Virus record (IMG/VR): IMGVR_UViG_3300021399_000107
Location: 93,173 to 157,172 of that record
DNA: 64,000 nucleotides
Source: a virus
Taxonomy: Duplodnaviria > Heunggongvirae > Uroviricota > Caudoviricetes
Strand: one strand, 5' to 3'
The position numbers and the translations under genes are program-made. Shown here piece after piece: positions 7,231 to 64,000 of the stretch. Each line of letters begins with the position of its first letter. Within the stretch, counting starts at the first letter, position 1. The notes under the pieces were generated by a model. That model was given only the letters and a program-made list of their open reading frames with translations, was not told the DNA's origin and made no database searches.

Positions 7231-7609
7231 ATATTAGGTTTCGTAGCGTTTCGCTTTCCATTAGGTCTACATATTTCTGTCTCACTTGCGGCTCTAGTCG
7301 TAAGGTAAGGAAGACAGCGAGATTAAAGGCGGCCGCATAATGAAAAGCAGTAGCTGCATCTATCCCTTGTTTCATTATGCCTTCTGCAACAGGATTGCGC
7401 GCTTGCTTACTAGTTGATGTTTCAATGCGCGCAATTTCCTGTTCATAGGCTTCAATCCAATCATCCGGCGTGGTGCCATTTATATACTTATTAATAATAT
7501 AGCGAATTAAACAATCGCCACTTGGCGTAATTGTATAGCGTCGCTTGAGATGGAAAAGACGCAAGAAAAAGCGTCCGATTTTTCTAATCAAGTTAACACA
7601 GTATTGCAT
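7199..7609 (-). CDS. hypothetical protein
   Basis: 136-aa ORF. Confidence 0.35.
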   Translation of the reverse strand: MQYCVNLIRKIGRFFLRLFHLKRRYTITPSGDCLIRYIINKYINGTTPDDWIEAYEQEIARIETSTSKQARNPVAEGIMKQGIDAATAFHYAAAFNLAVFLTLRLEPQVRQKYVDLMESETLRNLICEMYKIYDGR

Positions 7610-8058
7610 TTAGTCCTCATCCATTCGTTGGGATGTCTTACAATATCACGCATAATACAGTAGATTGGCGATTCAATATTTTCTGCGTTTGTATTAAAAA
7701 AATAGGAACAGCCGCAGAAAGTCATTAGGGAAGTAGATTGAGAATTATCAATTTGAATCACATAGATGCGCTTTTGGAGAGCGCGAGCGTACCCTTGCTC
7801 AAAATTCGTGCCTGCTGTACTATTGCGGCCCAGGCTAATAAGGATGAGCGCATCGGCTTCCAGAATGTGCGCAATATCGTTATCATAAACCTTTTGCGCC
7901 CAAATTTCTTGTGGATAATCCCATGCGTTCGGAACCTTGAACTCGAAAGGACAATAGAGGGAATCCTCTTCGCGCATAAGCTTTTCAATCGTATGTTTTA
8001 CTGTGTGCATTAAAGAACGATGTTCGCTGTCACAAGGGCCCGCAAGATAGTACTTCAT
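7588..8058 (-). CDS. nucleoside 2-deoxyribosyltransferase / dNMP N-glycosidase (NDT/DNPH1 family)-like
   Basis: N-terminal YLAGP and the GTNFEQGYA catalytic-Glu motif characteristic of the NDT/Rcl family. Confidence 0.6.
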   Translation of the reverse strand: MKYYLAGPCDSEHRSLMHTVKHTIEKLMREEDSLYCPFEFKVPNAWDYPQEIWAQKVYDNDIAHILEADALILISLGRNSTAGTNFEQGYARALQKRIYVIQIDNSQSTSLMTFCGCSYFFNTNAENIESPIYCIMRDIVRHPNEWMRTKCNTVLT

Positions 8059-10917: not shown

Positions 10918-12210
10918 TTAAACGGCCTTCTTTTCTTTGAGAACAAGATTTAAAAATAAGCCTACAATAATACTTAGGGCAACGCCACTAAAAGAAAAAG
11001 TTCCATAATTAATTGCTATTCCGCTGACACCACAACTTAGCATTGCGGCAAAAATTAAGCTATTTTTCATATTAGAAAAATCAACTTTATTATTCATAAT
11101 AGTACGCACGCCTGCGTTGGCAATTAATGAATAACACAGAATAGATATACCAGCAAATACACAATTAGGCATGGCCGCGACAGCGCGATTAAAAGGAGTA
11201 ATAAAGCCTAGAGCAATAAGTGTTAAAGAGGCAGTAAGGAAACACCATACACTTGCTACACCACTAACGGCGATCGTACCGGTTGCTTCACTAAAAGTTG
11301 TCGTACACTGTGAACCTGTTAAGGTGCCTACAAATGAGCTTAGGCCATCACCAAGAAGAGTACGAGGGAGTTGACTAAGCGTATCAGTTCCAGTTACAAC
11401 TCCAATAGTATTCATGTCCGCGATATGCTCTGCCAGCGCAGAACAGCTAACGACCCCGAACATTAGGATAATTTGTGGTAATGTATTCCAATGAAAAGTC
11501 GCAAAGTTGATATGTGTAAAAGTTAAATCAGGAACAGAGAATAAAGACATATTTTGGAATTGAGAGAAATCTACTAAATTAGCGACCCCGCAAACTGATA
11601 GAAGAATACATAATAGATAACCAGCGAGAGTTCCGCCTAAAAATGGTAGTGTCTGCCAGATGCCTTTTGCGTAATGCCCAATAAGACAAGTAACCAAGAC
11701 TACAAAAAAGGCGATTCCAATTCCTAATAAAGAATATTGTCCATTTACTTGCGCATAAACAGGAATAAAAGAGGTGAGTGAGATTCCTATGATAAGAACT
11801 GATGTGCCTGAGATCAACGGATTGAATAGTTTATTAATCCAATTTGTGCCATAATGTTTAACAAAAAGTGCGACAACAGCATAAATTATACACATTACTA
11901 ATCCGCCAATGACTACACCTAGAAAATTTTTATGAACGGCATCAGTAAGTGTAAGCGTAGAGACAATTGCGGCAACAGTTGCACCGCTATTACTAGTAAT
12001 CGCGCTTACTTTAAAACCAGTTACCAGTAAGAAAACAAAGGTTCCTAGTCCCGCAGAAATTAATCCTGCACTAATCGGTGTGCCGCATATTAGACTAATA
12101 AGCATTGTAGCTGGTAGTACTGACAGCACAAATTGGGCCGTATAGCCAATCCATTCCTTTAAAGTACGTGGCTTTTCGCGCACGCCATAAATTAAATTTG
12201 TATTATTCAT
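10918..12210 (-). CDS. nucleobase:cation symporter-2 (NCS2, UraA/xanthine-uracil permease family) membrane transporter
   Basis: 430 aa with about 12 predicted TM segments. AEHIADMNTIGVVTG...LPRTLLGDGLSSFVGTLTGSQCTTTFSEATGTIAVSGVASVW closely matches the UraA signature region (EHIG...GDG...G.P.TTY.ENIGV...T.V.S). Confidence 0.75.
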   Translation of the reverse strand: MNNTNLIYGVREKPRTLKEWIGYTAQFVLSVLPATMLISLICGTPISAGLISAGLGTFVFLLVTGFKVSAITSNSGATVAAIVSTLTLTDAVHKNFLGVVIGGLVMCIIYAVVALFVKHYGTNWINKLFNPLISGTSVLIIGISLTSFIPVYAQVNGQYSLLGIGIAFFVVLVTCLIGHYAKGIWQTLPFLGGTLAGYLLCILLSVCGVANLVDFSQFQNMSLFSVPDLTFTHINFATFHWNTLPQIILMFGVVSCSALAEHIADMNTIGVVTGTDTLSQLPRTLLGDGLSSFVGTLTGSQCTTTFSEATGTIAVSGVASVWCFLTASLTLIALGFITPFNRAVAAMPNCVFAGISILCYSLIANAGVRTIMNNKVDFSNMKNSLIFAAMLSCGVSGIAINYGTFSFSGVALSIIVGLFLNLVLKEKKAV

Positions 12211-33245: not shown

Positions 33246-33614
33246 TTAATAAATCTCCTTATATCCGTAATGTGTAAGCAGATGCCGCATATTATTTGCT
33301 CCAATTGGATTCATAGAATGAATATGAAAACCAACAAGTGAAATCTGATTTTCAACAATCCACTTACAAATTCCATATCCGTTTGGCTCAAGTTCATTCT
33401 CATTACCTTCACCTAAATCGTGGTCAAGATCGAGAATGAATTGGGCAGTTTCACCACTATAACAAATAGCCGTGATAAGATCAATAGTTCCTTGAGCTGT
33501 TCGACAAATATGAGACCGCCAATCAGAAGTCAAATGAGAATTATACCAATCCGCATTTTCACGAATATCATCAACATAAATATAATGTTTTATATTTCTC
33601 ATCCTTCCTCGCAA
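33246..33614 (-). CDS. hypothetical protein
   Basis: 122-aa ORF. Confidence 0.4.
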   Translation of the reverse strand: MRGRMRNIKHYIYVDDIRENADWYNSHLTSDWRSHICRTAQGTIDLITAICYSGETAQFILDLDHDLGEGNENELEPNGYGICKWIVENQISLVGFHIHSMNPIGANNMRHLLTHYGYKEIY

Positions 33615-33679
33615 CTTAAAACGTTAATTTAGAATAATAGCCCATAAAAACAAAAAACCTCCTTCCTTATTACGATAAT

Positions 33680-33708
33680 ATTATATCATAAATTTGAAAG
33701 AAGGTCAA
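33680..33708 (-). promoter_or_regulatory. promoter TTGACC-17-TATAAT
   Basis: ATTATA-N17-GGTCAA on the plus strand. Confidence 0.5.
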
Positions 33709-33787
33709 CTATTTGATTAGAAGAATTTTAGAAAGTGAAGGAGGAAAGAAGCATAAATTTGTATTCTTCTAATCCGCGAGATATGAA

Positions 33788-33862
33788 TGGTCGGCGTGGG
33801 CGGAGTTGGACCACCGTTCGACGCTTATAAGACGCCAGCACTAACCGTTATACTACACGCCG
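33788..33862 (-). tRNA. tRNA with anticodon UAU (Ile/AUA-decoding type), atypical T-loop
   Basis: Minus-strand fold: CGGCGTG-TA-GTAT-AACGGTTA-GTGC-T-GGCGT-CTTATAA-GCGTC-GAAC-GGTGG-TCCAACT-CCGCC-CACGCCG-A-CCA. 75 nt, perfect acceptor stem. The T-loop has C55 instead of U. Confidence 0.5.
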
Positions 33863-34560
33863 TCAAAAAAATCCTATGATGTGCTATTACGCCAAATTAT
33901 CCACCAAGATATGTCTCCGGCAAGTAAGTGATAGATATACCTCTCTCATAACACTTACCTTAATTCTCGTCAGAATCCGTCGCCTACGATATTTTCATAT
34001 CACATTATCTATTCGTCAATAGCGTGAGATACGGGCATTGCCCATCAAATATCGTAATTGTAAACCTAGTAGGATTCCTCTACCATTAGCTTACAACGCT
34101 GACAGCGATAAACTCTTTAGAAGATGGCTGTTTCTAAGCCAACTTTTCATAGGATAAAAAGAGAAACAGAACTAAGTTTCGTACTGCCGTCCTAGACCTC
34201 ATCCTGTTTCTCTTGCGGCCAAAGTTCGCGTTACCTTGGCGCGCACGCGGTTTAACTTGGGACGCAGCCCGAGCTGGACTGACGTGCCAGCCTACGGTTT
34301 GCTATTATGGTACTAACTTCACCAAATAGATTAGAACTAGAATCTATTAAACTAGGACATAATAAATCTACATCAGTACTCAATGCTTACGATCAGATAA
34401 GACCGGCGATTTCTTCTAAATCTTACAATAGCTATGTCATTTCTATTGCATAGATGCTAAAACTAGTACATATTTACTGGTAGCAGACCGAATGTACAGA
34501 ACGGATTAATTTCAGGCATTAATTGCCGCCAACCACACTCTACCTTATGCGTTTGGCATA

Positions 34561-34634
34561 TGGAGCACGATACCAGACTCGAACTGGCAACGCAACCTTG
34601 GAAGGGTCGAATGTTACCATTACACTAATCGTGC
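34561..34634 (-). tRNA. tRNA-Gly(UCC)
   Basis: Minus-strand fold: GCACGAT-TA-GTGT-AATGGTA-ACAT-T-CGACC-CTTCCAA-GGTTG-CGTT-GCCAG-TTCGAGT-CTGGT-ATCGTGC-T-CCA. Confidence 0.7.
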
Positions 34635-34674
34635 ATAAGCGGGGCGATTTTAAAGTCCACGCCCCTCAATGGAC

Positions 34675-35007
34675 TTACAGCAGGTCAAAGATGTCGAAAA
34701 GAGTTGGCACAACGCTATCATTCTGCTTTAGCGTCTGATGATAATAACCATACTTCTTACAGAAATCTGAAAGCTTCTGCGAGTATTCGGAACGTGCCTT
34801 CTGGAGGGTCTTGAAGGCGGCATCAACCTCAGCAGCGGCCTGCTTGCGCTCCGCGGCTTGCTGTTCCTTGATTGCCCGTTCCTTTGCCTGCGCGGCTTCG
34901 CGTTCCTTACGTGCCTGTGCCTGCTTAGCTTCGTATTCAGCCTCAGCTGTTAGGCAATCCTTTTCGGTGTTATAAGTTCGACCTAGAATTTCACTGTAAT
35001 ACTTCAT
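34675..35007 (-). CDS. Ala/Glu/Lys-rich coiled-coil protein
   Basis: 110-aa ORF. Confidence 0.4.
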   Translation of the reverse strand: MKYYSEILGRTYNTEKDCLTAEAEYEAKQAQARKEREAAQAKERAIKEQQAAERKQAAAEVDAAFKTLQKARSEYSQKLSDFCKKYGYYHQTLKQNDSVVPTLFDIFDLL

Positions 35008-52965: not shown

Positions 52966-53388
52966 TGCTAAAGTGTCATTGTAGATATAACACTGATTCT
53001 GATTTGCAAGTAGCGTCATCTGATTGGTACGAACATCATTAATCTGAGAGCCGATAACCGCTTGAATATCCTTCATCACATTAATGTTATCGTACTTAGC
53101 CTGAGAAGTAGCCGCAACAGCCTGCGCAGTACCATTTGTAATGGCGGTCATGATATCACGATTCTGATCTTGTAGATCAGAGAAGTTCATGCCAGCCTGT
53201 ACAAAATCCTGCGTTGCGTATTGAGGACGATAGCCGCCGCCACCGCCAAAATTGCCAAAGCCGCCGCCAAAGAGTGCGAGGATAGCAAATAGCCAAATCA
53301 TACCGCCCCAGCCGCTACCACCAAAACTGTCATTATTGTTTCCACTGAGTAGAGCGACATCAGCAGCAGAAAGTCCATTTTCGCTCAT
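52960..53388 (-). CDS. probable 5' exon region of interrupted gene (142-aa ORF; Gly-rich membrane/structural protein)
   Basis: GGGFGNFGGGGG and a hydrophobic segment. The C-terminal residues may be read-through into the intron. Confidence 0.4.
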   Translation of the reverse strand: MSENGLSAADVALLSGNNNDSFGGSGWGGMIWLFAILALFGGGFGNFGGGGGYRPQYATQDFVQAGMNFSDLQDQNRDIMTAITNGTAQAVAATSQAKYDNINVMKDIQAVIGSQINDVRTNQMTLLANQNQCYIYNDTLAA

Positions 53389-53418
53389 AATTATTCCTCC
53401 TTAGAAAAGAAAAATTAT

Positions 53419-53455
53419 ATATATAAAAAACGTTCGTGTTTAAAACACGAACGTT
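53419..53455 (-). terminator. rho-independent terminator
   Basis: Hairpin AACGTTCGTGTTT-AAA-ACACGAACGTT followed by TTTTTTATATAT on the minus strand. Confidence 0.55.
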
Positions 53456-53781
53456 CATTGCAGAGCACGCAACACATCTTCGGGATTTACGCCCGCTTGT
53501 TGCGCTAAATAATAGAACAATTGTTGCATATTAATGCCATTAGAAGAAGCCATTTTAATTAGATTCGCTAGTGTCGGATTCTGATTTATCGCTTCTGTAA
53601 TAACTTGTTGCGGATTAGCACTCATTTTTACCGCACTCATCAGATTCCTAATTTGTTGAATCTGTGGATTCATCTGCGGCTGTTGCTGCGTTCCTTTGCT
53701 TCTTATTTGATTTTGAAACTCCAGAATTGGATTGCTTGGCATATAATTCCTCCAAGTGGCGTAGTCGACTATCAAGATCAT
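53455..53781 (-). CDS. Gln/Asn-rich hypothetical protein
   Basis: 108-aa ORF. Confidence 0.35.
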   Translation of the reverse strand: MILIVDYATWRNYMPSNPILEFQNQIRSKGTQQQPQMNPQIQQIRNLMSAVKMSANPQQVITEAINQNPTLANLIKMASSNGINMQQLFYYLAQQAGVNPEDVLRALQ

Positions 53782-54055
53782 TTAGATCAATAGGCGGCTG
53801 AGTTTGGTGCGGCTTCACGTCAAATGGCGCAACCGTTAGATAACCGGCTCCATCTGTTTGCGCAAGCCAGACAATAGCGCCCGATTCATCTAGCAGTAAG
53901 ATACTGCTATTCGCATCCATTTGAATACTGCGCGCGCCTGCTTCACCTTTAACCTTAATGATTTCATAGTGCGGCAAAATTTGATATGGTGAGCGCATAG
54001 ACATGCGTCCCATATTCATATTCATATTATTATTAATTCTATTTCCTAAGTCCAT
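53648..54055 (-). CDS. hypothetical protein (overlaps downstream ORF in another frame; one of the two may be mis-started)
   Basis: 135-aa ORF. Confidence 0.3.
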   Translation of the reverse strand: MDLGNRINNNMNMNMGRMSMRSPYQILPHYEIIKVKGEAGARSIQMDANSSILLLDESGAIVWLAQTDGAGYLTVAPFDVKPHQTQPPIDLNDLDSRLRHLEELYAKQSNSGVSKSNKKQRNAATAADESTDSTN

Positions 54056-54057
54056 AT

Positions 54058-54273
54058 TTATGCCTCATTCTTATATTTGCGACCACAATATGGACACCAC
54101 ACGCATGGCCGCATGTTGTTCGCATTATCTAGAAAAAAGAGCGGGATTTCGCGCTTCTTTTTCTGATTGTAACAGAAGCCGCATCCGATTGTTTGTGGCT
54201 CTTTCCATGAAGCATCTTTAGTAGCTTCTTCGTAGTTTTCGTATTCTTCGTATTCGTACCTAAATCGTGCCAT
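54058..54273 (-). CDS. zinc-ribbon protein
   Basis: CGFCYN...CVWCPYCG. Confidence 0.4.
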   Translation of the reverse strand: MARFRYEYEEYENYEEATKDASWKEPQTIGCGFCYNQKKKREIPLFFLDNANNMRPCVWCPYCGRKYKNEA

Positions 54274-54282
54274 AATGCTCCT

Positions 54283-54927
54283 TTATGTACCTGCGTAGTC
54301 AATAATGACTATTTTATTATTTATATAGCCGACATTCCCAAAGTGAATGTCGTCAATTTTATTTGTAGCAAGAAAATTAGATAAGCGTTCATATGCTTCA
54401 CGTCCATAATCTTCATAAAAATTATTGGCTATATCAACATAAGTGTTTAGACAAGAAGGAACGGAACGTAAATAAGAACGTCTACCTGAACGTATGTAGT
54501 GATGATGTATAGAGGAAGTACGCGCACGCGGATACGCATACAAAGGAAGCCGTATATTCTTTGCTGTATATGTTCCTAGTTGATATGGTTGCGCGAAAAA
54601 TTGTGAACAAGAAGCCTTTTCAGCCAATTTATAATTTTCGCACTCATGAAGACAATGAAAAACACTAGGCTGTAAATCAAATTTTACAACATATTCGCAC
54701 GTATCATCAATTAGACAACCTCGAAACGCGCCGCAGGCGATGTGAAGGTGAGGATTAAACAAGTCCTCACCTTCATCTTCTTCTTCAAAACTAAGTTCAT
54801 AAGGTGAAGAAAAATACTTATTCCAAAAAGATGAATTATGAATAAGCGTAGTGAGTGCGCTAGAATAGCGGTCGTAAACTTCGTTGAAATTCATCTTTAC
54901 ACTTCCTTTCATGTTTCTATTATACAC
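54283..54927 (-). CDS. hypothetical protein
   Basis: 214-aa ORF. Confidence 0.4.
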   Translation of the reverse strand: MYNRNMKGSVKMNFNEVYDRYSSALTTLIHNSSFWNKYFSSPYELSFEEEDEGEDLFNPHLHIACGAFRGCLIDDTCEYVVKFDLQPSVFHCLHECENYKLAEKASCSQFFAQPYQLGTYTAKNIRLPLYAYPRARTSSIHHHYIRSGRRSYLRSVPSCLNTYVDIANNFYEDYGREAYERLSNFLATNKIDDIHFGNVGYINNKIVIIDYAGT

Positions 54928-54947
54928 GAAAGTGCGTAAAAAGTCAA
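54919..54947 (-). promoter_or_regulatory. consensus promoter TTGACT-17-TATAAT
   Basis: ATTATA-N17-AGTCAA on the plus strand. Confidence 0.55.
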
Positions 54948-55013
54948 GTATTAAAATTACTGTTCTGTAAGATAGGTAGAAAAAATTGGTTGAAAAATGT
55001 ATATTATGCGCGC

Positions 55014-57659
55014 TTACCTTTCAACCCAACCACGATTCAAATATTGCCATCCTTTTGTATGTCCTGTTGTGTCTACCATTTGCGCGCCAAATGGAACATT
55101 AGTATCGGTAGGATATTCGGTTCCATAGGCTACACCAGAATTAAGGTATGGTGATTGTAGTGTCCATGCGCCTTCGTTGAAGCCACCTAGACGAATAGAG
55201 ATATGACTAAAAGATGGGGCATTGGTATCGGCTAATTCAAGTGGAAACTCATTAAAAGGATAGAGACAGGGATAGAACTTGATTACCATTGTGTGGTAAG
55301 TTTCGTTTCCATTCTCATCCGGTAAGTCAGGAAAGCGTTTTATCATTAGTGCGTTATGTCCCATTGGTTTTCCATAATAGTTACCTACTGTCAAAGTGCC
55401 TTCATCATTAGTGATGGGCGCGCCAATGGTACGATCATAGCCATACAAATCTTCGCGCCTAATAGTAGGTGCATCGCATAAGTAAACGATTGCGCCATCA
55501 TCTGGCCTCGTTGCACGATAGAATTTTGCTGAGCCACTATCCAATTCTCGTACTCCTTGAGAATTGTAAAGAAGACAATTCCACATGATACCCTCAACAT
55601 CGGCGTCAATTTCGACAACATAAGATGTGTTTAAGGTAAGGGTAAGAGTAGCGAAACAATACTGGTCTTGAAAAAGATCGGCTGGCATCATGCGCAGATG
55701 GGTTAGATCATCTTGATACACTCTTGGATTATAATGCTGTTTTTTGGGATTCAAAATTTCTACTCGCGGGTGGCCGCCAGTAGCTACCAAGTTGGTTGGT
55801 AATGTGAATTTCTCTTGCGGCGTAATTAGATTAAAAATTGGAACAAACTTCCAATACTTTTTGTTTCTAAATGCGCGCACATTTGATTTCTTATCTATGG
55901 TATCCCATTTCTTTGTTACCATCAGCATAGAGTCATAGGTCTCGTCGTGCGTGCGCTCGACAATATTACTTGCGGAATCGTAGTAGGCGGTTGGAATCCA
56001 ATAGCCATAGGGAAGTCCAGAATACTCAAAAGCGGATTGAGTATTAAGAATTTCGCCGCCATCCTTGTAAATAATAGCATCAAGAACGTAGTAGTATTCA
56101 ACATCATTTTCTGTGCTATATATATAACCATAAGTAATAAGTTTTTGAATCCAATCGGGCAATATGTAAGCCTTATGAGTGCCTTCTTTCCAAGTGTTAT
56201 TATTTATATCTGTTGGATCGCTGCCAGGATCACAAGTATACACACCATTTGGCACTTGCTGTACCAAACCTTCGTTATCATCGGGGTCCTCGGCTTGCAC
56301 TTTTGCCGCAATAGAATAAAAAGGATACTCGGTATTTGTTTCATTATTAGGTAAACGTTGCCTGTTCATAAGATAAGTAGTGTCACTGTCACTTGTTGGA
56401 TTAATGAAGCTAACTGTTGGCGCGCTTGTGCCTGACTTATTAATTACATATTTCCTATACTTAATTTGATCTATTAGTTCAAAATAAATGGTATCGTAAA
56501 GGAAATAATTGGGATTCAAATTTTCACCACGACAAATAAACATATTATTGCGACCATTATTAATATTAAGTGATGAAGTACTTGATTCCAATGAAACATT
56601 ATAGAAATAATTGTTATTGCTCTTGTAGTCTTTTATTTTAGACCCATACAAGAAAATATGCGACACTTGCATATCATAAAATTTGTTATCATTGGTATAA
56701 CCATAGGTGCCACCATTTATTTTTACAGAATCATAGAAAGTATGAGTTACGTCAGGCCATAGTTCTTCATCTGCTCCATTTAAAGAATGATATTTCAAAT
56801 CTTCGGGTTGTGCTTGATAATTTTCAATAGCCATTAGCTTTAATGTATTTACATAATGACCATGAATTGTATTATAAGTACATGAGCAGTCGCGCAAAAC
56901 GCTACGATCATCGCCAATAAAGTTGAGAGTGTCGATGCGGTCGAAGGTAATATCACAATGACCCATGTTAATAAAGGAAATAAATGTAGCGCGATAGATG
57001 AAAATATTGAGATATAGATATTGGCGCGCTGGGCGATCACCAATAACAACAGGAACGGCGTTTGTGTCGTCTTCAGGATCGAGTTTAGTTGTCTTTGCTC
57101 GCCATGCGCTTGAGGTCGCGTCATCTAAATCGTATTTAAACACAAGCCCAAGATTTTCAAACGTACTATTTAAATTTATACTTTTAGGAAAATTTTCAGC
57201 AGGCGTTGGAACTAATAGATCACCAACATAAGTTGATGTTAAATTTGTAGAACGTAGTGTAATTAAATATGGTGCATTTGTGCCGCTATATGTAAAAACA
57301 TCACTATTACTTGTCCAGTTTAATTTATGCTGACAACAATAGCGAAAACTATTTTGTACAATAGATTCAAATTTTTGCGCGCCTGCGTCTTCTGTAAGAA
57401 CAGAAGGCAGTCCACCAAAGGATTCAATACTTATGTCGGTAGATGGAACAATTTCTACGGAATATGAACCTACGTTAGATTGCCCATTAGCACTAAAGTA
57501 ATTTATGGGTAGCTCTTCTTGCGGCTCCTCGATAATACGATAACGAGCTTGCCCGCCATCATTAACCTCCCTAAATCCTAGGGTTGAAAAAATGGTTCCA
57601 ATCGGTAGCGTTGGTTCGTTTACAATACCCAGTAGTGTATCAAAAAGTTGTTCTTGCAT
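55014..57659 (-). CDS. large structural protein (tail spike/baseplate-like, 882 aa)
   Basis: Start at MQEQLFDTLL with an AGGTGAGAAT ribosome-binding site. Tyr/Asn/Thr-rich, beta-rich composition. Confidence 0.45.
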   Translation of the reverse strand: MQEQLFDTLLGIVNEPTLPIGTIFSTLGFREVNDGGQARYRIIEEPQEELPINYFSANGQSNVGSYSVEIVPSTDISIESFGGLPSVLTEDAGAQKFESIVQNSFRYCCQHKLNWTSNSDVFTYSGTNAPYLITLRSTNLTSTYVGDLLVPTPAENFPKSINLNSTFENLGLVFKYDLDDATSSAWRAKTTKLDPEDDTNAVPVVIGDRPARQYLYLNIFIYRATFISFINMGHCDITFDRIDTLNFIGDDRSVLRDCSCTYNTIHGHYVNTLKLMAIENYQAQPEDLKYHSLNGADEELWPDVTHTFYDSVKINGGTYGYTNDNKFYDMQVSHIFLYGSKIKDYKSNNNYFYNVSLESSTSSLNINNGRNNMFICRGENLNPNYFLYDTIYFELIDQIKYRKYVINKSGTSAPTVSFINPTSDSDTTYLMNRQRLPNNETNTEYPFYSIAAKVQAEDPDDNEGLVQQVPNGVYTCDPGSDPTDINNNTWKEGTHKAYILPDWIQKLITYGYIYSTENDVEYYYVLDAIIYKDGGEILNTQSAFEYSGLPYGYWIPTAYYDSASNIVERTHDETYDSMLMVTKKWDTIDKKSNVRAFRNKKYWKFVPIFNLITPQEKFTLPTNLVATGGHPRVEILNPKKQHYNPRVYQDDLTHLRMMPADLFQDQYCFATLTLTLNTSYVVEIDADVEGIMWNCLLYNSQGVRELDSGSAKFYRATRPDDGAIVYLCDAPTIRREDLYGYDRTIGAPITNDEGTLTVGNYYGKPMGHNALMIKRFPDLPDENGNETYHTMVIKFYPCLYPFNEFPLELADTNAPSFSHISIRLGGFNEGAWTLQSPYLNSGVAYGTEYPTDTNVPFGAQMVDTTGHTKGWQYLNRGWVER

Positions 57660-57663
57660 ATTC

Positions 57664-58749
57664 TCACCTCGCCTGTACAATAGCATTAACTACTTTCGAT
57701 AAAATATTTGTCTTATATCTACAATAAATATGACTAGCTTCGGTCAGATATAAAGCATAATTATATTTGTTAATACCAAAATTGTTATACAAATCAACTA
57801 CTGGCACATGATATTTTTTACCAATTTCCTTAATTAATTCTACATATTCTGGTAATAATGTATCAGCAATGATTTTATCTTCTGCTCCACCTGGATTGGT
57901 AGCAAAATTCCAATACGCATAGGAAGGAGTTAGTAATTTTAAAGTAAAATCAGAATTTCGTTTAGAATACAAAATTGAATCGACAGTTGATTCATAATCA
58001 GTTTTAAATTGAGAACCGAGGTTCACCGACCCATTAAAATCATACAATCCATAACCAAACCATAGTTCATCTACTTGCGGCCAAACGCTATTATTAACTC
58101 CTAGATTTAAATAATTAACAACATAATTCTGAAAAGTAGAAGTCATCGCATTGTAACTTGCAACTTGCGTAGAAAAATCTCCAGAAATTAATGCTGTAAT
58201 TAATTTGGTGCCAGTAAAATCATTCATATGATTAGTGCTACGCGATTCAATATCGCTACACGAACCATAAGTGATGGTGCCATTGATAATATTGGCATGA
58301 GCCGCTAGTCGCGCTTGTTGTATAAAAGACGCAGCACCAAATAATTCTGATCCTAAAATTAAGATATTTGGTGTGGTTGCTTGAATCGCAGCTAAGGAAT
58401 TAAGTGTACCATTACTTATTGGCGCTATATTATCGTTAATAATTAGCGTATCATTAATATTAATTGGCTTAATAGCTTGATAGAAAACATTTTTCCAAAT
58501 GCCATATTCGCCTATATTTAATGCGATTTGCGCGCTATTAGAATCACTAGTAGCTAACAGGGGCGCAAATTGTGTTATATCAGGAACAGAACGCGCCGTT
58601 GGCACCGTCCCTAATTCATTACTTTCGGTAAATGTATCAAGGATTACGTTTAATCTTTCCAAAATATCATAAACAAGACCTTGTTTAATTGGCTTACTAG
58701 CAACTAAATTTGCTTTCATATAGTCAATCCAAGATTGTTCATTCGGCAT
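57664..58749 (-). CDS. hypothetical protein, possible SGNH/GDSL-like hydrolase
   Basis: 361 aa. The functional assignment is weak. Confidence 0.3.
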   Translation of the reverse strand: MPNEQSWIDYMKANLVASKPIKQGLVYDILERLNVILDTFTESNELGTVPTARSVPDITQFAPLLATSDSNSAQIALNIGEYGIWKNVFYQAIKPININDTLIINDNIAPISNGTLNSLAAIQATTPNILILGSELFGAASFIQQARLAAHANIINGTITYGSCSDIESRSTNHMNDFTGTKLITALISGDFSTQVASYNAMTSTFQNYVVNYLNLGVNNSVWPQVDELWFGYGLYDFNGSVNLGSQFKTDYESTVDSILYSKRNSDFTLKLLTPSYAYWNFATNPGGAEDKIIADTLLPEYVELIKEIGKKYHVPVVDLYNNFGINKYNYALYLTEASHIYCRYKTNILSKVVNAIVQAR

Positions 58750-58825
58750 TTTATCATCTCCTTGTGCGCATATAGCGCTCTAACAGGTAAGTGGCTACCT
58801 TTCATTAAATTACTTATGCTTTTTG

Positions 58826-58858
58826 CATAAAAGAAAGGAACCTTATTCAGGTTCCTTC
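58826..58858 (-). terminator. rho-independent terminator
   Basis: Hairpin AAGGAACC-N7-GGTTCCTT followed by TCTTTTATG on the minus strand. Confidence 0.5.
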
Positions 58859-59361
58859 CCAATCTTATTTTCAATATTTCTTTGTAGCGACTCTTCTTCA
58901 TTGGCAATTCTATTACAGGCGCTGTCAGCAATATCAGCAACCTGATTCAGCCAATTAAATTCGCTTTCAAAAAACACATTAAGAGCGCGCACCCAAGCCT
59001 TGTCCATCTTGCGCTTCATGCGGGCAAATGCGATTTGCGCACCAATCTTTTCATCCCATTGGTCGTGAATAGAACATCTTGCAATACCCTTAAAATAATC
59101 AGGCATATAACATCCAGTAACGCCGCGATAGAGATCATAACGTCCAGATGTGTCATGCCTCTCATTATAATGATTAAGAAAATCTTGCGCCATATATTTC
59201 GTTCCTTCACAAATACACACTACCGTGCGCGTTTGCTCATTCACAAAAAAGTTACAATCATTCATCTTAATTTGCGTTGGCTTCATACAGCTTTTGTTCA
59301 TTCTTGCCGTTCTCCTTCCAAAAATTACGAATTTTATGTAAAAATAAACCACAAGGGTCAA
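58843..59361 (-). CDS. hypothetical protein
   Basis: 172-aa ORF. Confidence 0.4.
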   Translation of the reverse strand: MTLVVYFYIKFVIFGRRTARMNKSCMKPTQIKMNDCNFFVNEQTRTVVCICEGTKYMAQDFLNHYNERHDTSGRYDLYRGVTGCYMPDYFKGIARCSIHDQWDEKIGAQIAFARMKRKMDKAWVRALNVFFESEFNWLNQVADIADSACNRIANEEESLQRNIENKIGKEPE

Positions 59362-59650
59362 ACCTTAAACTATCATCATTTTCTGCCATTAGAGCGCTTC
59401 GCAATTCGGGATGCTGACGAAACTTTTCAAACATAATATCATAAAGTATGTCGTTTTTAATAGTATCCCAATCTGGTCTAACTCTTATTTGAGAACCTAA
59501 GATGCGCGCTTGGGCCGCAGTAAGGTCACAAAAAACATCTCGACATGAGGCATCGGCAATACGCATTGAAAAGTAGGCGCTAGTGACACAACTAAAAGTT
59601 AAACCTAAGTATTTAATTTCACAGGGGAAATCATTATCAAATATAGTCAT
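59267..59650 (-). CDS. possible NADAR-domain (YbiA-like ADP-ribose processing) protein
   Basis: 127 aa. FDNDFPCEIKYLGLTFSCVTSAYFSMRI loosely fits the NADAR N-terminal pattern (F..P..........F.S.E..F...KF). Weak call. Confidence 0.3.
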   Translation of the reverse strand: MTIFDNDFPCEIKYLGLTFSCVTSAYFSMRIADASCRDVFCDLTAAQARILGSQIRVRPDWDTIKNDILYDIMFEKFRQHPELRSALMAENDDSLRFDPCGLFLHKIRNFWKENGKNEQKLYEANAN

Positions 59651-60173
59651 AATGTTCCTCCCAACGAACTTGATTTGCTGTTAGAATAGCTCGAGCGGCC
59701 GCGTAGCTCTCAGGCTTAGAATCGGCTGTCGCGTCTCCAACTACCACGATGCGACTTTCAGGACAATAGGTTTTAAGAAGAAGCGCATTGGTGACGACGC
59801 AAATAGAAGTCACAAGACCACAAATGACAATTTCCTCATCACTAAGCAAGTCATAATGCCGTTCCCACTGATCGTAGCCAAAACCCCATTTTTCTACGAT
59901 GCGCACATTATCTCCTTGCGGCACAATTAGGTCAGGATGGAGATGCCATCCTGATGTCCCACGAAGTCCGTGTATAATAGGAAGACGCTTACCCTCTTGC
60001 GTGTCGTAGTACCACGGATAGTGGGTATCTTGTGTGAAGATAATGGCGTCATTATGCTCTACGGCACAATTAATTAGTCTGTTGCACTCCGGTATAATGG
60101 TTTTTGCAGAAGGAAAACCTAAAGCTCCCTCTATAAAGTCCTTCTGCATGTCGATAACTACTAATGTTTTCAT
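59637..60173 (-). CDS. isochorismatase-family hydrolase, nicotinamidase (PncA)-like
   Basis: VIDMQKDF N-terminus and the catalytic Cys context IVICGLVTSICV. Confidence 0.65.
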   Translation of the reverse strand: MKTLVVIDMQKDFIEGALGFPSAKTIIPECNRLINCAVEHNDAIIFTQDTHYPWYYDTQEGKRLPIIHGLRGTSGWHLHPDLIVPQGDNVRIVEKWGFGYDQWERHYDLLSDEEIVICGLVTSICVVTNALLLKTYCPESRIVVVGDATADSKPESYAAARAILTANQVRWEEHYDYI

Positions 60174-60191
60174 ATAGTCCTCCGATATGAA

Positions 60192-60440
60192 TTACCAAGA
60201 AATCCAATACCCGGTTTCGGTCTTGTCTATATCATATCCTAAAGAACGTAAGAAATCAAATACGGAGCTATCTACTATTGTTGCAACAAAAAACCATCGT
60301 GTTATACCTAGGGCGTTCAGATTTTGGCAAACATTAAGAATATAAAATAATTGAATGTCGGGCGGCGGATTTTGCATTACAGTTTTATCATGCAAATTAT
60401 CTGCCCGAAAGCATGGTGAGAAATAGTATTGTGGAAACAT
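60192..60440 (-). CDS. hypothetical protein
   Basis: 82-aa ORF. Confidence 0.3.
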   Translation of the reverse strand: MFPQYYFSPCFRADNLHDKTVMQNPPPDIQLFYILNVCQNLNALGITRWFFVATIVDSSVFDFLRSLGYDIDKTETGYWISW

Positions 60441-60462
60441 TGTTTTGTCCTTTCATAATTCT

Positions 60463-60491
60463 ATTATAGCAGAAAAGAGAGGAAAAGTCAA
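60463..60491 (-). promoter_or_regulatory. consensus promoter TTGACT-17-TATAAT
   Basis: ATTATA-N17-AGTCAA on the plus strand. Confidence 0.55.
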
Positions 60492-60709
60492 GAGTTGGGC
60501 GCAAACGGAAGTTCCATCCAAAAGCTAGGCGCTTCATCCATTCTACACTCATATCCCGCATCTGCCACCGCGCGCCATTCTTCGTGTTCTTGATATATGA
60601 CTCGATGCGCGACGAGCATATCCTCAGTAACAGGACAATAACATAGAACGTAGCGCTCCATTGGCGGCAACTGTTCAGTTACTTTCATCCAATCTCCCAT
60701 TACCACCAT
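60488..60709 (-). CDS. hypothetical protein
   Basis: 73-aa ORF. Confidence 0.3.
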   Translation of the reverse strand: MVVMGDWMKVTEQLPPMERYVLCYCPVTEDMLVAHRVIYQEHEEWRAVADAGYECRMDEAPSFWMELPFAPNS

Positions 60710-61068
60710 TCCTCCGTATCTTCCGTAACGAGACTTTCTGCTCCATCATATTCTTCAATGCGCCACTTTACATTAATTGGCACCCATTCAATATGACAGT
60801 CACCTAAGCCACCTGTATATATATTAGTGTATCCTAGCTGCGCAAGAAAAGCGATGGCAGCAGCCTGATCAGAATTGGCATGAAATGCGCTTACGTTGGC
60901 GCGCCAACCGGCATCTTGTTCATTGGAAAGAAACCATTCAATAATGCGCTTATCATAAGCAACTTCAGGAGAATACCACGTACTCCAGCCAGCGCCAAAA
61001 CCTGAAGAAACCAGAACAGCAAATTTGGTATTATCTTCGTTATAGTATAGCGGAATATTCTTATTCAT
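60700..61068 (-). CDS. hypothetical protein
   Basis: 122-aa ORF. Confidence 0.35.
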   Translation of the reverse strand: MNKNIPLYYNEDNTKFAVLVSSGFGAGWSTWYSPEVAYDKRIIEWFLSNEQDAGWRANVSAFHANSDQAAAIAFLAQLGYTNIYTGGLGDCHIEWVPINVKWRIEEYDGAESLVTEDTEEWW

Positions 61069-61073
61069 AAACT

Positions 61074-61325
61074 TTAACCCCTTTCATAAGTCTCTTCAAA
61101 TATGTCGCGACGACATGGATAGAACTCGCCACGCACTCCATGAATAATATAGTCACCGATATGCGCGGTCATGACGCCTTCAAGAGTAGGAACGAATACA
61201 ACGCATGGGTCGTCGTCATCGAAGGCAACAGTATCGTTAGTAAAAATTTTTAGTTCTGTTTGATTTATGCCTGTCCACTGTACGGCAGTAACGGCAACCG
61301 GCTTTTTAATATACTTGGCAATCAT
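61074..61325 (-). CDS. hypothetical protein
   Basis: 83-aa ORF. Confidence 0.3.
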   Translation of the reverse strand: MIAKYIKKPVAVTAVQWTGINQTELKIFTNDTVAFDDDDPCVVFVPTLEGVMTAHIGDYIIHGVRGEFYPCRRDIFEETYERG

Positions 61326-61966
61326 AGATTTTCCCTCACAATATCTTTCGTAATGCTAGAAAGAGACCAAAACAAACCGACGTCGGTCTGTTCCGGCATA
61401 GGAATAGTGTTAATTAAGTCAGCGTCAAAATCCATTCTTCCTTCTAGTCGCATCTTGCGCGGCTCGCCCCAAATGAAAGGTGAATGGAAGAGGTCGCGTG
61501 TAAGACAATAGTCGTTTTCTTGGATAGCGGCAGCGAAATTATAGAACCAATAGGCGCGAGCCGTACCTTTAGGATCATTTTTACGCAAGCAATCTTTGAT
61601 CATACCTTTAATTGCAGCAATAAAATCAGGCCACACTTGTTGTAGATGCCCTTGTGCGAGACTTGCTTCCGCAGCCATACAGAATTGCGTAAATTTTGTA
61701 TCACCGTAGGAGCCAGAATGAGTAGAATACAATAGCTCTACCGCATTTGGATTACCTCTTCTTAGTTGATACTCCCAATCACGAATATCCATAGTAACAT
61801 AATGTTCGCTTGCGGGAAAACCAGGCGCATGTTTCTTTCTAAGGTTTTCATTATAATAAAGTTCATCGAAAGAAGGTGTTACAATTACCTTATAATCATA
61901 GTCACTAGTAGGTAAATCAAGATGATAGTTTTGTGATCCATAAAGAAAATATCCAAGTACTTTCAT
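61322..61966 (-). CDS. Pol-beta-fold nucleotidyltransferase-like protein
   Basis: YGSQNYHLDLPTSDYDYKV matches the GS-x(9-13)-DxD nucleotidyltransferase signature. Confidence 0.45.
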   Translation of the reverse strand: MKVLGYFLYGSQNYHLDLPTSDYDYKVIVTPSFDELYYNENLRKKHAPGFPASEHYVTMDIRDWEYQLRRGNPNAVELLYSTHSGSYGDTKFTQFCMAAEASLAQGHLQQVWPDFIAAIKGMIKDCLRKNDPKGTARAYWFYNFAAAIQENDYCLTRDLFHSPFIWGEPRKMRLEGRMDFDADLINTIPMPEQTDVGLFWSLSSITKDIVRENL

Positions 61967-62029
61967 TTTATTAACTCCTTAATATCAATTTACTGATTTC
62001 TTCTATTACTTTTTCCTTTTTCTATATCT

Positions 62030-62058
62030 ATTATACTTCAAATTTAAAAAGAAGTCAA
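62030..62058 (-). promoter_or_regulatory. consensus promoter TTGACT-17-TATAAT
   Basis: ATTATA-N17-AGTCAA on the plus strand. It sits immediately after the upstream terminator. Confidence 0.55.
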
Positions 62059-62088
62059 GAAAAAAAGAAGTAGATTTTCATCTACTTC
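62058..62088 (-). terminator. rho-independent terminator
   Basis: Hairpin GAAGTAGA-N6-TCTACTTC followed by TTTTTTTCT on the minus strand. Confidence 0.5.
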
Positions 62089-63155
62089 AAAATCTCCATA
62101 TAATCCTTTTTAGTAGAAACATACATATTCGTTAAGAAGTGCGGCTTAACCACTTGGAGTCGTCCTTCGGTTGTTTCCAATTCACTATTAGTATAGTTGA
62201 AGTGTGTAAAAACCATATTAATGGTTTTGTCGCAATTATATTGCGCGGCATCGCCATTTACGCGTCTATACAGTTTCTCCATATCAATGCGGCCAAATCG
62301 TAGTGCGCCTTGCCAATCATTGGGCTGATTAGTTGTATCTGTAATAGAGAAGTTAATATCCGATTTGTCACATTCCGCATCCATTGGACCTTTTCCGTGT
62401 CGTGTAATATACGAGCGCGATACATAATAGAGGTCTGCGCGCACTTGAAGGCTCTCAATATCACTATGAATATTATATGCGCCAGTAGAAGAGGGTGTAA
62501 GATGCGGGAAATCGCCCTTATTGGCTTGGTCTAATAGTAGACCCTGACCACCCTCATAAATAATAGTATCATATTTATTTTCTCTAACTAATTCTTCAAA
62601 AGTTATAATACGACAATTCGCCCTTACCCATTTAAGAGCAATAAGAAAATTAGATAAATTGTGGATGGCATTAGGAATATATTTATAATAGCTATCGGCC
62701 TTTTGAAAAACAGGATAGAGCGTCTTATCAGGTAATTCAAAATCCGTAACCTGAACAAGATAATCTAATTCTTTACTGCGTTTAACGGCGGCAAAAAGAC
62801 CAAAACCGCAAGAGCCGTGCTGTAACTGCTTTTCGCGCGATTGCCCATAAAGAACATCACAAGGCATAATAACCCGGCATCGTGGATCAATAATTGGCGT
62901 TTCACCAGAAAGCCAAAGCATAATCGGGTCAACTACAAATTGCTGATGGTAGAAAGTGTCAGAACCATAAGGTGTGCCTGCACCAGTTAGACGACGAGCT
63001 ACACCCTCAAAAGTATGACTACGCTGACTTGTGCCGTTATAGAATACAGTTAATGTCCTATTGCCACGATTCGCGGCTTCTCGCGCAAGGCATCCAGACA
63101 CCAAACCCTTGCCTTCATCACCATAATTGGCACCGATTACAACTTTGACTTCCAT
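62082..63155 (-). CDS. adenylosuccinate synthetase homologue, short form (PurA/PurZ-like)
   Basis: N-terminus VVIGANYGDEGKG (PurA P-loop GDEGKGK), then FYNGTSQRSHT (compare QGGHNAGHT) and HGSCGFGLFAAV (compare GTTGRGIGPAY). At 357 aa it is shorter than bacterial PurA (about 430 aa). Confidence 0.55.
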   Translation of the reverse strand: MEVKVVIGANYGDEGKGLVSGCLAREAANRGNRTLTVFYNGTSQRSHTFEGVARRLTGAGTPYGSDTFYHQQFVVDPIMLWLSGETPIIDPRCRVIMPCDVLYGQSREKQLQHGSCGFGLFAAVKRSKELDYLVQVTDFELPDKTLYPVFQKADSYYKYIPNAIHNLSNFLIALKWVRANCRIITFEELVRENKYDTIIYEGGQGLLLDQANKGDFPHLTPSSTGAYNIHSDIESLQVRADLYYVSRSYITRHGKGPMDAECDKSDINFSITDTTNQPNDWQGALRFGRIDMEKLYRRVNGDAAQYNCDKTINMVFTHFNYTNSELETTEGRLQVVKPHFLTNMYVSTKKDYMEILK

Positions 63156-63170
63156 ATAAATCTCCTTTAT

Positions 63171-63983
63171 TTACCAAGAGATACCATCATTGCTTGTAGT
63201 TACAGAAGACTCAGCCATTGTCCTGTGACTACTATTTACAATTGCGGCAATAAGCTGTGGTAGATCGGTACTTTCCGCAATAATTAGATGGTCGCCAAGT
63301 AGAGGACGCCAAGTATCTTCAATAAGATTCTTATTCCATTTATAAGAACTCTGGTCTGTAATAGCGATATGATAAATGTCAAACTTTTCAGATGCGGCAG
63401 CATACAGCTGCTTCGTATCAATGTCTCCGTCTACTTGACCACCAATAACATCCTTAATTCGCTTACCGGGGAGCATTGGATTGAGAGCTTCATCACCAAT
63501 AGTAATTATAATGCCACGCTCACCGCGATCCCAGCAATCAAAGATGCAGTTATGGAGACCGAAATACCACGCAGCAGTATAGGATTCCCAATTATTGCCG
63601 CCACCGCCACCCTCAAAGTATAGTTTGAGTGTCTGTTCTAGAATACGAATGTCGGATTCAAACTGTGTAACTTGTAGAGGTGCGCTGTCGTAAATAAAGT
63701 CGCCAATGCCCATTACGCAAAACTCTACGTCGTGGTTGTTTTTGTAAAGTTCAGTCATTGTTTCATCAAGCTTCGCGGCACAGGTAGTTGCAGCGTGACC
63801 CATAGAGCCGGTAACATCCAGCCCTAGAATTACAGGCAGGCTATGTGGGTGGTCATCACTATCGCGACATTCCCGTACTACATTATAGGGATTAAGCATA
63901 GAACTAAGATGATGAGACCTATATACTGTTTGCGCACTAGCATTACTCATTGCGTCAGTAGAGGCAAAGCCGCGAGCGCTCAT
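63171..63983 (-). CDS. von Willebrand factor A (vWA) domain protein; N-terminal extent uncertain (frame open to window end)
   Basis: The MIDAS-like motif LGLDVTGSMG. The reading frame is still open upstream of the annotated Met. Confidence 0.45.
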   Translation of the reverse strand: MSARGFASTDAMSNASAQTVYRSHHLSSMLNPYNVVRECRDSDDHPHSLPVILGLDVTGSMGHAATTCAAKLDETMTELYKNNHDVEFCVMGIGDFIYDSAPLQVTQFESDIRILEQTLKLYFEGGGGGNNWESYTAAWYFGLHNCIFDCWDRGERGIIITIGDEALNPMLPGKRIKDVIGGQVDGDIDTKQLYAAASEKFDIYHIAITDQSSYKWNKNLIEDTWRPLLGDHLIIAESTDLPQLIAAIVNSSHRTMAESSVTTSNDGISW

Positions 63984-64000
63984 TACCGTCGTTGCCGCTC

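Follow-up and report, generated by a model that had tools for sequence, protein, structure and literature searches.

The window analyzed here is a stretch of 64,000 nucleotides, positions 93,173 to 157,172 of the Caudoviricetes record IMGVR_UViG_3300021399_000107; it is phage-like, with 85 of its 93 called open reading frames (ORFs) on one strand. At 62082..63155, on the minus strand, it carries a gene, c0, for a 357-residue protein of the adenylosuccinate synthetase (AdSS, PurA) superfamily. The original prediction, made from the sequence alone, described a phage AdSS-family protein that has a GDEGKG P-loop and is shorter than PurA, and each part of this description holds. The ORF is confirmed and the gene is real: it starts with ATG, and its product begins MEVKVVIGANYGDEGKGLVSG. 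Pfam PF00709 (Adenylsucc_synt) matches the protein at E = 3.2e-15 (56 bits, cutoff 27) and PHROG 1211 at E = 3.6e-32. An AlphaFold model (predicted local distance difference test score 86.4, predicted TM score 0.88) retrieves only AdSS folds in Foldseek at E ≤ 0.001. Compared with E. coli PurA (432 residues; sequence L003, 688-1986), the protein is 75 residues shorter, mostly at the C-terminus.

The PurA-like gene is the last of a conserved cassette, part of which falls at or beyond the window edge. Directly upstream, at 63171..64000 on the minus strand, lies c1 (phrog_2971), a gene for a protein with a von Willebrand-A (vWA) domain. Contig L088, which is 100% identical to window 53171-64000 and runs 8.1 kb further, shows that c1 starts 25 nt past position 64000 and that the ATG at 63983 is an internal methionine. 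The full gene encodes 284 residues, and protein P0121, also of 284 residues, is 100% identical to it. The edge cuts c1 by 14 codons and entirely hides a third gene, c2; the affected region is L088:7532-8946. This vWA partner is the decisive context for the PurA-like gene, and it lay beyond what the original prediction could see.

From ORF coordinates, c1 and c0 are separated by a spacer of 15 nt (63156..63170), which indicates tight operon packing. The same spacing is found in L088 (8946 to 8962); there only 2 nt separate c2 from c1, and c2 encodes 185 residues that match the c2 profile at E = 7e-94. A terminator-like hairpin on the minus strand (62067..62088), with a 9-bp stem followed by TTTTTTTCTT, overlaps the c0 stop codon and is predicted to mark the end of the cassette's transcription unit. 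A promoter-like site, TTGACT-17-TATAAT (11/12; 62030..62058, minus strand), precedes the next gene and would mark the start of a separate unit; both signals come from a consensus scan only. Together, the gene spacing, the hairpin and the next promoter-like site indicate that the unit is c2-c1-PurA-like.

To place the cassette, we collected 80 related viral loci and clustered all flanking ORFs, taking 10 kb on each side of the clade gene and, for this phage, the window plus the 8.1-kb extension. The gene order is a c2 gene or a J-domain protein kinase (c26), then the vWA gene c1, then the PurA-like gene. By profile search, c1 adjoins the PurA-like gene in a fixed position in 79 of 81 viral loci and in 75 of 80 loci from bacterial assemblies; the same search finds it in none of 17 genuine PurZ loci. 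It also lies beside the clade gene in the cultured phages Vibrio phiKT1024 (E = 4e-102), Rhizobium RHph_Y65 (E = 1e-78) and Mycobacterium Tonenili (E = 4e-56), and on large isolate-genome contigs from Mesorhizobium, Clostridium drakei, Hymenobacter, Acetobacter, Desulfamplus and others. The c1 protein has the Rossmann-like fold of vWA domains and a D-x-(S/T)-x-S motif of the metal ion-dependent adhesion site (MIDAS) type.

The third component varies. The c2 family stands upstream of c1 in 52 of the 81 viral loci. Its members have a conserved N-terminal domain of about 125 residues followed by a low-complexity Met/Gly-rich tail with an acidic end, and they match no known family. Two points offer leads: GroEL and Hsp70 also have tails rich in Met and Gly, and acidic residues on partner proteins are ligands of MIDAS sites. 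The c2 slot is taken by c26 in some 30 loci, among them those of Tonenili and of the Mesorhizobium and C. drakei chromosomes. In c26 a J-domain, whose H-P-D is invariant (E = 1e-7 in a profile comparison with DnaJ J-domains), is fused to a protein kinase of the eukaryotic type; the kinase domain is Aurora-kinase-like (E = 2e-6) and in Tonenili matches Pfam Pkinase at 8.5e-9.

Relatives of c0 form a large clade, with 1,719 matches among 90%-identity clusters; at 50% identity and E ≤ 1e-30 there are 1,972 clusters. All of the 150 best-scoring 50%-identity clusters are single-domain, with no fusions. Carriers include phages of Firmicutes, Proteobacteria and Actinobacteria as well as bacterial chromosomes; phiKT1024, RHph_Y65, Tonenili and other Bixzunaviruses are in culture. 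A nucleotide search of GenBank phages with the region gave no match, so this particular phage is known only from metagenomes. Its relatives sit on viral contigs of 160-185 kb, the closest of them with genomes of roughly 175 kb, and clade carriers are mostly 130-240 kb, whereas the PurZ phages in the records seen measure about 25-66 kb. We are almost certain that c0 belongs to this distinct, vWA-linked clade.

The original prediction called the protein PurZ-like and took its short length as the hallmark of PurZ, the N6-succino-2-amino-2'-deoxyadenylate synthase of phages whose genomes contain 2-aminoadenine (Z). PurZ and PurZ0 (PDB 6FM1, 7ODX, 7VF6) do resemble c0 in being phage-borne, short (343-367 residues) and of the AdSS family. 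However, genuine archaeal PurA in the PDB (2d7u/5k7x) has just 339-340 residues, so short length alone is no mark of PurZ, and the c0 clade is mostly 360-420 residues long.

The P-loop does separate the groups. In PurZ and PurZ0, Ser (rarely Gly) replaces Asp13 of PurA in the motif G-S-x-x-K-G; according to a 2026 NAR survey (PMC12884076), 100% of 147 phage PurZ/PurZ0 sequences carry Ser here, and 99% of the PurA group carry Asp13. The sequence is GSTGKG in PhiVC8 and S-2L PurZ and GSEAKG in PurZ0 (7VF6), compared with GDEGKG in c0 and PurA. Across 274 clade sequences this residue is Asp in 265 and Ser in none; the motif is unmatched in nine, which are probably truncated ORFs. Whole-protein comparisons give the same picture. 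The NCBIfam PurZ model NF038379 (amino_Aden_PurZ) scores c0 at 26.8 bits against a cutoff of 300, with a good match only over residues 3-31, and c0 is about 17% identical to PurZ. With hhalign, the clade profile aligns to E. coli PurA at 98.3% probability (E = 2e-14, 281 columns) and to PhiVC8 PurZ at 35.7% (E = 4e-4, 176 columns). Foldseek ranks cellular PurAs 1-23, followed by S-2L PurZ at 24, PurZ0 at 33 and PhiVC8 PurZ from 34 onward. In a neighbor-joining tree (Poisson correction, 100 bootstraps) of 74 clade members, 19 PurZ, PurZ0 and E. coli PurA, which is distance-based and has E. coli PurA as its single cellular PurA, PurZ and PurZ0 split from the clade plus E. coli PurA in 100 of 100 bootstraps, and the c0 clade is monophyletic in 98.

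The partners of PurZ are also missing. We searched with single seeds, real DatZ, MazZ and DpoZ proteins, and used as a positive control 17 genuine PurZ loci drawn from the same viral collection as the clade loci. The controls contained DatZ in 17, DpoZ in 15 and MazZ in 12. The same seeds found no DatZ or MazZ and only two DpoZ in 81 viral clade loci (1.44 Mb), none of the three in 80 bacterial clade loci, and none in the window plus its extension. Thus PurZ keeps company with DatZ, MazZ and DpoZ, c1 and c2 never accompany it, and the c0 clade shows the opposite pattern. A Pfam sweep of window ORFs of at least 70 residues, in which 25 of 31 families were listed and the other six were single matches weaker than E = 2.7e-4, contained no HD, MazG, DUF550, DUF5664, dUTPase (DutZ) or DNA_pol_A. 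The original prediction was therefore correct that DatZ and MazZ do not appear in the window, but the partners it allowed for elsewhere were found neither in the 8-kb extension nor in the 161 related loci. The tblastn matches to DatZ among GenBank phages come chiefly from phages of Vibrio, Aeromonas and Acinetobacter, with sizes of about 38-66 kb for the records listed; no more than one is a Mycobacterium or Rhizobium record. By contrast, phages of these last two genera make up 212 of the 223 GenBank phage carriers of the c0 clade.

One candidate DatZ, an HD-motif protein at L088:5681-6574, was rejected. Its likeness to DatZ is confined to 45 residues around a generic HD motif (E = 0.03), and it is a fusion of a Pnkp-type kinase with an HDIG/CCA-type HD domain, encoded beside an RNA ligase 1 (Rnl1) gene.

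The relationship to PurA is closer and yet incomplete. The folds agree (Foldseek E = 1e-13 to 1e-10, TM 0.5-0.68), but the sequences are only about 22-24% identical, the C-terminus of c0 is shorter and its vWA neighbor is near-obligate. Against the four PurA equivalog models (TIGR00184, NF002223, NF010355 and NF003295), c0 scores 37-45 bits where the cutoffs are 368-445, a shortfall of more than 300 bits in each case. Several residues are nevertheless retained: in E. coli numbering, Asp13, Lys16, His41, Gln224 and Thr239 correspond to D13, K16, H47, Q204 and T220 of c0. These are the catalytic and inosine monophosphate (IMP)-pocket residues of E. coli AdSS structures. Their mapping is borne out by a profile-profile (HH) alignment, and together with a TRHGxGP motif they are invariant across clade members that are only about 30% identical.

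Other positions have changed. Thr129 is replaced by Cys, Val273 by the invariant His of TRHGxGP, and Arg143, which in PurA comes from the partner subunit, is not conserved (Leu130 in the MAFFT alignment, in a poorly aligned region). The aspartate-binding loop T300-T301-G-R303-R-R305 (TTGRRRR) is missing under both MAFFT and HH alignments, the first giving W-Q-G-x-L-gap and the second a 4-residue deletion at this position, although at about 20% identity the alignment of loops is uncertain. One Arg (R286) is near-invariant in the clade. The GTP-specificity motif T-K331-L-D333, of the general form (T/S)-K331-x-D333, reads T-H-F-N in the MAFFT alignment, whereas the HH alignment ends before it. 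PurZ and PurZ0 likewise have Asn at the Asp333 equivalent in the MAFFT alignment, but Rhizobium and Mycobacterium clade members retain Asp, so the preference for a nucleotide donor may vary within the clade. The short Pyrococcus horikoshii PurA PH0438 (2D7U/5K7X) also lacks much of the bacterial C-terminal region; in contrast to c0, with which it shares weak similarity (E = 3e-3), it is a genuine IMP/GTP/aspartate enzyme crystallized with GTP, IMP and hadacidin. We conclude that c0 is not an ordinary PurA. The original prediction had proposed to place the protein by alignment with PurZ, PurZ0 and PurA, and the outcome is divided: the IMP-pocket residues are kept, with Asp and not Ser in the P-loop, but the equivalog models fail and the aspartate loop is gone.

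The genes around the cassette suggest a setting. Before it in the same genome, L088 encodes a dCMP deaminase and, 2-4 kb past the window end (L088:4533-6574), a T4-type RNA ligase 1 and the 297-residue Pnkp-type polynucleotide kinase with its HDIG/CCA-type HD domain; this pair looks, from its sequence, like an RNA or tRNA end-healing and sealing system. Directly after the cassette, on the minus strand at 61322-61966, and behind its own promoter-like site, is a gene for a 214-residue RlaP-like protein whose N-terminal region resembles nucleotidyltransferases (phrog_388, E = 3.5e-11); homologues (cluster c9) recur near the cassette in 11 loci. Beyond it come a DUF551 protein and, at 59267-60173 on the minus strand, overlapping genes for an isochorismatase-family hydrolase (nicotinamidase-like, with a weak PncA match) and a NADAR protein, which may be an ADP-ribose/NAD-related counter-defense pair. 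In L007, a relative at 67% identity, the gene directly after the PurA-like one encodes the isochorismatase. Recurrent neighbors in related loci are metallophosphoesterases, an AAA_33 kinase, RNA ligase, a TROVE-like DUF2828 plus vWA protein and PhoH-PIN. By adjacency only, these neighbors suggest the RNA-repair and counter-defense regions typical of large phages.

We also considered a role for the cassette in NAD salvage of the NARP type, in view of the nearby isochorismatase and NADAR genes and of NMNAT in Rhizobium phages. We rejected it because these neighbors are not conserved across the clade and the NARP3 paper contains no PurA-like component.

Taking these results together, we consider it probable, if not assured, that c0 is neither PurA nor PurZ/PurZ0 but represents a large, uncharacterized clade of the AdSS superfamily, and this clade probably does something not yet described. 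Leaving the role of the gene open, as the original prediction did, was right, and its suggestion of a purine chemistry other than Z survives as a hedge. The invariance of the catalytic and purine-pocket residues points to a retained PurA-type step, in which the 6-oxo group of an IMP-like purine nucleotide would be phosphorylated at the expense of a nucleoside triphosphate (NTP) and then displaced by an amine. Judging from these residues, we lean slightly toward ligase chemistry of this type having been kept. The amine site appears to be rebuilt, and from the changes at the loop we would give even odds that the acceptor is something other than free L-aspartate bound in the manner of PurA. A vWA partner that is near-obligate and a third component linked to Hsp70 suggest that the reaction would be regulated by, coupled to or directed at proteins. 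Finally, the position among RNA-repair and ADP-ribose/NAD genes suggests that the cassette acts in phage-host conflict and not in Z-DNA synthesis, a role that we regard as evenly balanced.

In its fullest form, this proposal would be a new reaction: PurA-type activation of the 6-oxo group, then attack by a nucleophile other than free aspartate, under the control of the J-domain kinase, which would recruit Hsp70, or of c2, serving phages and bacteria as a weapon or countermeasure. The nucleophile might be a protein amine held on the vWA partner, which would yield a covalent N6-linked purine-nucleotide-protein adduct, or it might be ammonia or another metabolite. We consider this scheme unlikely.

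Several observations weigh against the reading we prefer. The alignment of the aspartate loop is ambiguous and R286 is nearly invariant, so aspartate could bind in another geometry. A pure NTPase would likewise keep the equivalents of D13, K16 and H41. The view of a conflict island comes from gene adjacency alone. A literature search for the biochemistry of any clade member found none, and the substrate and product are therefore ones that we infer. With respect to PurZ, the S14D mutant of the PhiVC8 enzyme reportedly loses selectivity but not activity (bioRxiv 10.1101/2025.10.22.683976), so that Asp does not strictly forbid a guanine substrate, and a distant Z-cluster could lie elsewhere in this phage genome, of which the window and 8 kb beyond it were covered.

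An ordinary auxiliary PurA, converting IMP, L-Asp and GTP to adenylosuccinate to raise the supply of AMP during infection, was among the roles offered by the original prediction. The retained Asp13, His41, Lys16, Gln224 and Thr239 would suit it, E. coli PurA gives the best alignment of the clade profile, PurA-type phage genes have been reported on unmodified contigs, and the window holds other nucleotide-salvage genes. One of these, at 10918-12210 on the minus strand, encodes an NCS2-family nucleobase:cation symporter (uracil permease E = 3e-53, Xan_ur_permease E = 2e-43), a transporter unusual for a phage that suggests base salvage during infection. The others are a T4 gp1-type deoxynucleoside monophosphate (dNMP) kinase and two nucleoside 2-deoxyribosyltransferase (NDT)-family genes, all within window 1-21500, where one NDT-family gene lies at 7588-8058 on the minus strand and its product starts MKYYLAGP. 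This account is weakened by the failed equivalog models, by the missing Thr300/Thr301/Arg303/Arg305 loop and by the changes at Arg143, Val273 and Lys331/Asp333 (the last pair to His/Asn). Moreover, a housekeeping-type enzyme would have no need of a near-obligate vWA partner or a J-domain kinase, and we judge this explanation unlikely.

We hold it equally improbable that c0 is an NTPase switch without ligase chemistry, driving a chaperone-like ternary system of vWA and J-domain proteins. The idea has a recognized precedent in the MoxR-vWA and GTPase-vWA systems (Kaur et al. 2020, PMC7159879), in which a protein that uses NTP is combined with a vWA protein that binds peptides and with a third component that varies; these systems occur in phages and bacteria and are linked to Hsp70 co-chaperone domains. 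The cassette follows the same design: its vWA partner is near-obligate, and its third component is either a J-domain kinase or the c2 protein, whose Met/Gly-rich tail is chaperone-like. The AdSS fold is remotely akin to Get3, ArsA and SRP GTPases (Foldseek ranks 41-50). However, it has no TRAFAC GTPase, and no MoxR AAA+ gene adjoins it in the window, L088 or the clustered loci; its NTP user belongs to the AdSS family and has kept the purine pocket intact. The equivalents of Gln224, Thr239 and TRxG are irrelevant to NTP hydrolysis and yet invariant at about 30% identity, which argues that a purine-nucleotide-like substrate is bound.

A third possibility is that c0 counters host immunity based on adenosine deaminases (Kongming, RADAR-like) by re-aminating IMP or dIMP, which would remove the precursor of the dITP alarm or restore adenine nucleotides. 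Asp13 suits a 6-oxopurine without a 2-amino group, anti-defense-type genes surround the cassette, and this phage has a T4-type dNMP kinase, the class of enzyme known to trigger Kongming (bioRxiv 10.1101/2024.12.20.629578). Against this, our literature search found no PurA-like enzyme tied to Kongming or RADAR-like systems, the sole published counter is the dNMP phosphatase Dmp, and the Kongming dITP paper describes no PurA-like one. The proposal also leaves unexplained the vWA, c2 and J-domain-kinase partners and the rebuilt aspartate loop, and the cassette is found in bacterial chromosomes too. Its probability is correspondingly low.

Far less likely still is a PurZ-type enzyme that makes dSMP from dGMP, Asp and ATP for 2-aminoadenine DNA, with DatZ, MazZ and DpoZ elsewhere or dispensable: the phage-borne short AdSS protein, the PurZ-like Asn at the Asp333 position (in the MAFFT alignment only), the family label common to PHROG annotation and PurZ, the tolerance of PurZ for S14D, and the dNMP kinase and two NDT-family genes (the NDT enzyme DmtZ is linked to PurZ0 phages) speak for it, but the P-loop, profile, tree and partner results speak against it, as do a GC content of 39% where contigs with the Z deoxynucleoside (dZ) tend towards high GC, a D12-class N6-adenine DNA methyltransferase encoded in window 1-21500, and NDT-family genes that lie 54 kb from the cassette with no PurZ0 present. 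Overall, we hold with high confidence that c0 is not PurZ.

This assignment bears on existing annotations. Automatic annotation names the clade members of Vibrio, Rhizobium and cluster C Mycobacterium phages "2-aminooxy adenylosuccinate synthetase", which is also what RefSeq calls PhiVC8 PurZ and what PHROG annotation uses. The label is probably misleading for several hundred GenBank/RefSeq phage records; taken literally, it would wrongly predict Z-genomes in many large phages, and recognizing a separate clade with its own conserved partners corrects it. Searches of the PurZ literature and the general literature found no description of the cassette, nor do a jumbo-phage survey (PMC7824862) and the survey of vWA conflict systems (PMC7159879) describe it. 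The analysis thus defines a widespread module, with about 2,000 clusters at 50% identity in phages and bacterial chromosomes, and its presence in cultured phages makes the question directly testable. If the amine acceptor has indeed changed, the clade would be a third functional branch of the superfamily beside AMP synthesis and Z-DNA synthesis.

Some chromosomal versions of the cassette have further neighbors. In Clostridium drakei a flavin amine oxidase gene (L129:7288-8967) comes after the J-domain-kinase/vWA/PurA-like triad, and in Hymenobacter the vWA/PurA-like pair is followed by a gene for a GAF-domain protein (L155:7227-7724). Such neighbors may hint at the substrate or the regulation of the chromosomal versions.

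The rest of the window encodes a topoisomerase II/GyrB, RNase H, DNA ligase, the T4-type dNMP kinase, PhoH and tail-fiber-like proteins. In window 21446-54927 the Pfam sweep found Mtd_N (the N-terminal domain of the major tropism determinant), BclA_C, SPFH/Band 7, a YkuD L,D-transpeptidase with SH3 and peptidoglycan-binding domains, and cREC_REC, a cyclic-phosphate-processing receiver; the Mtd_N match may hint at a target of a diversity-generating retroelement. Two tRNA genes on the minus strand, tRNA-Ile(TAT) at 33788-33862 and tRNA-Gly(TCC) at 34561-34634, occupy a gene-poor stretch at 33614-34675.

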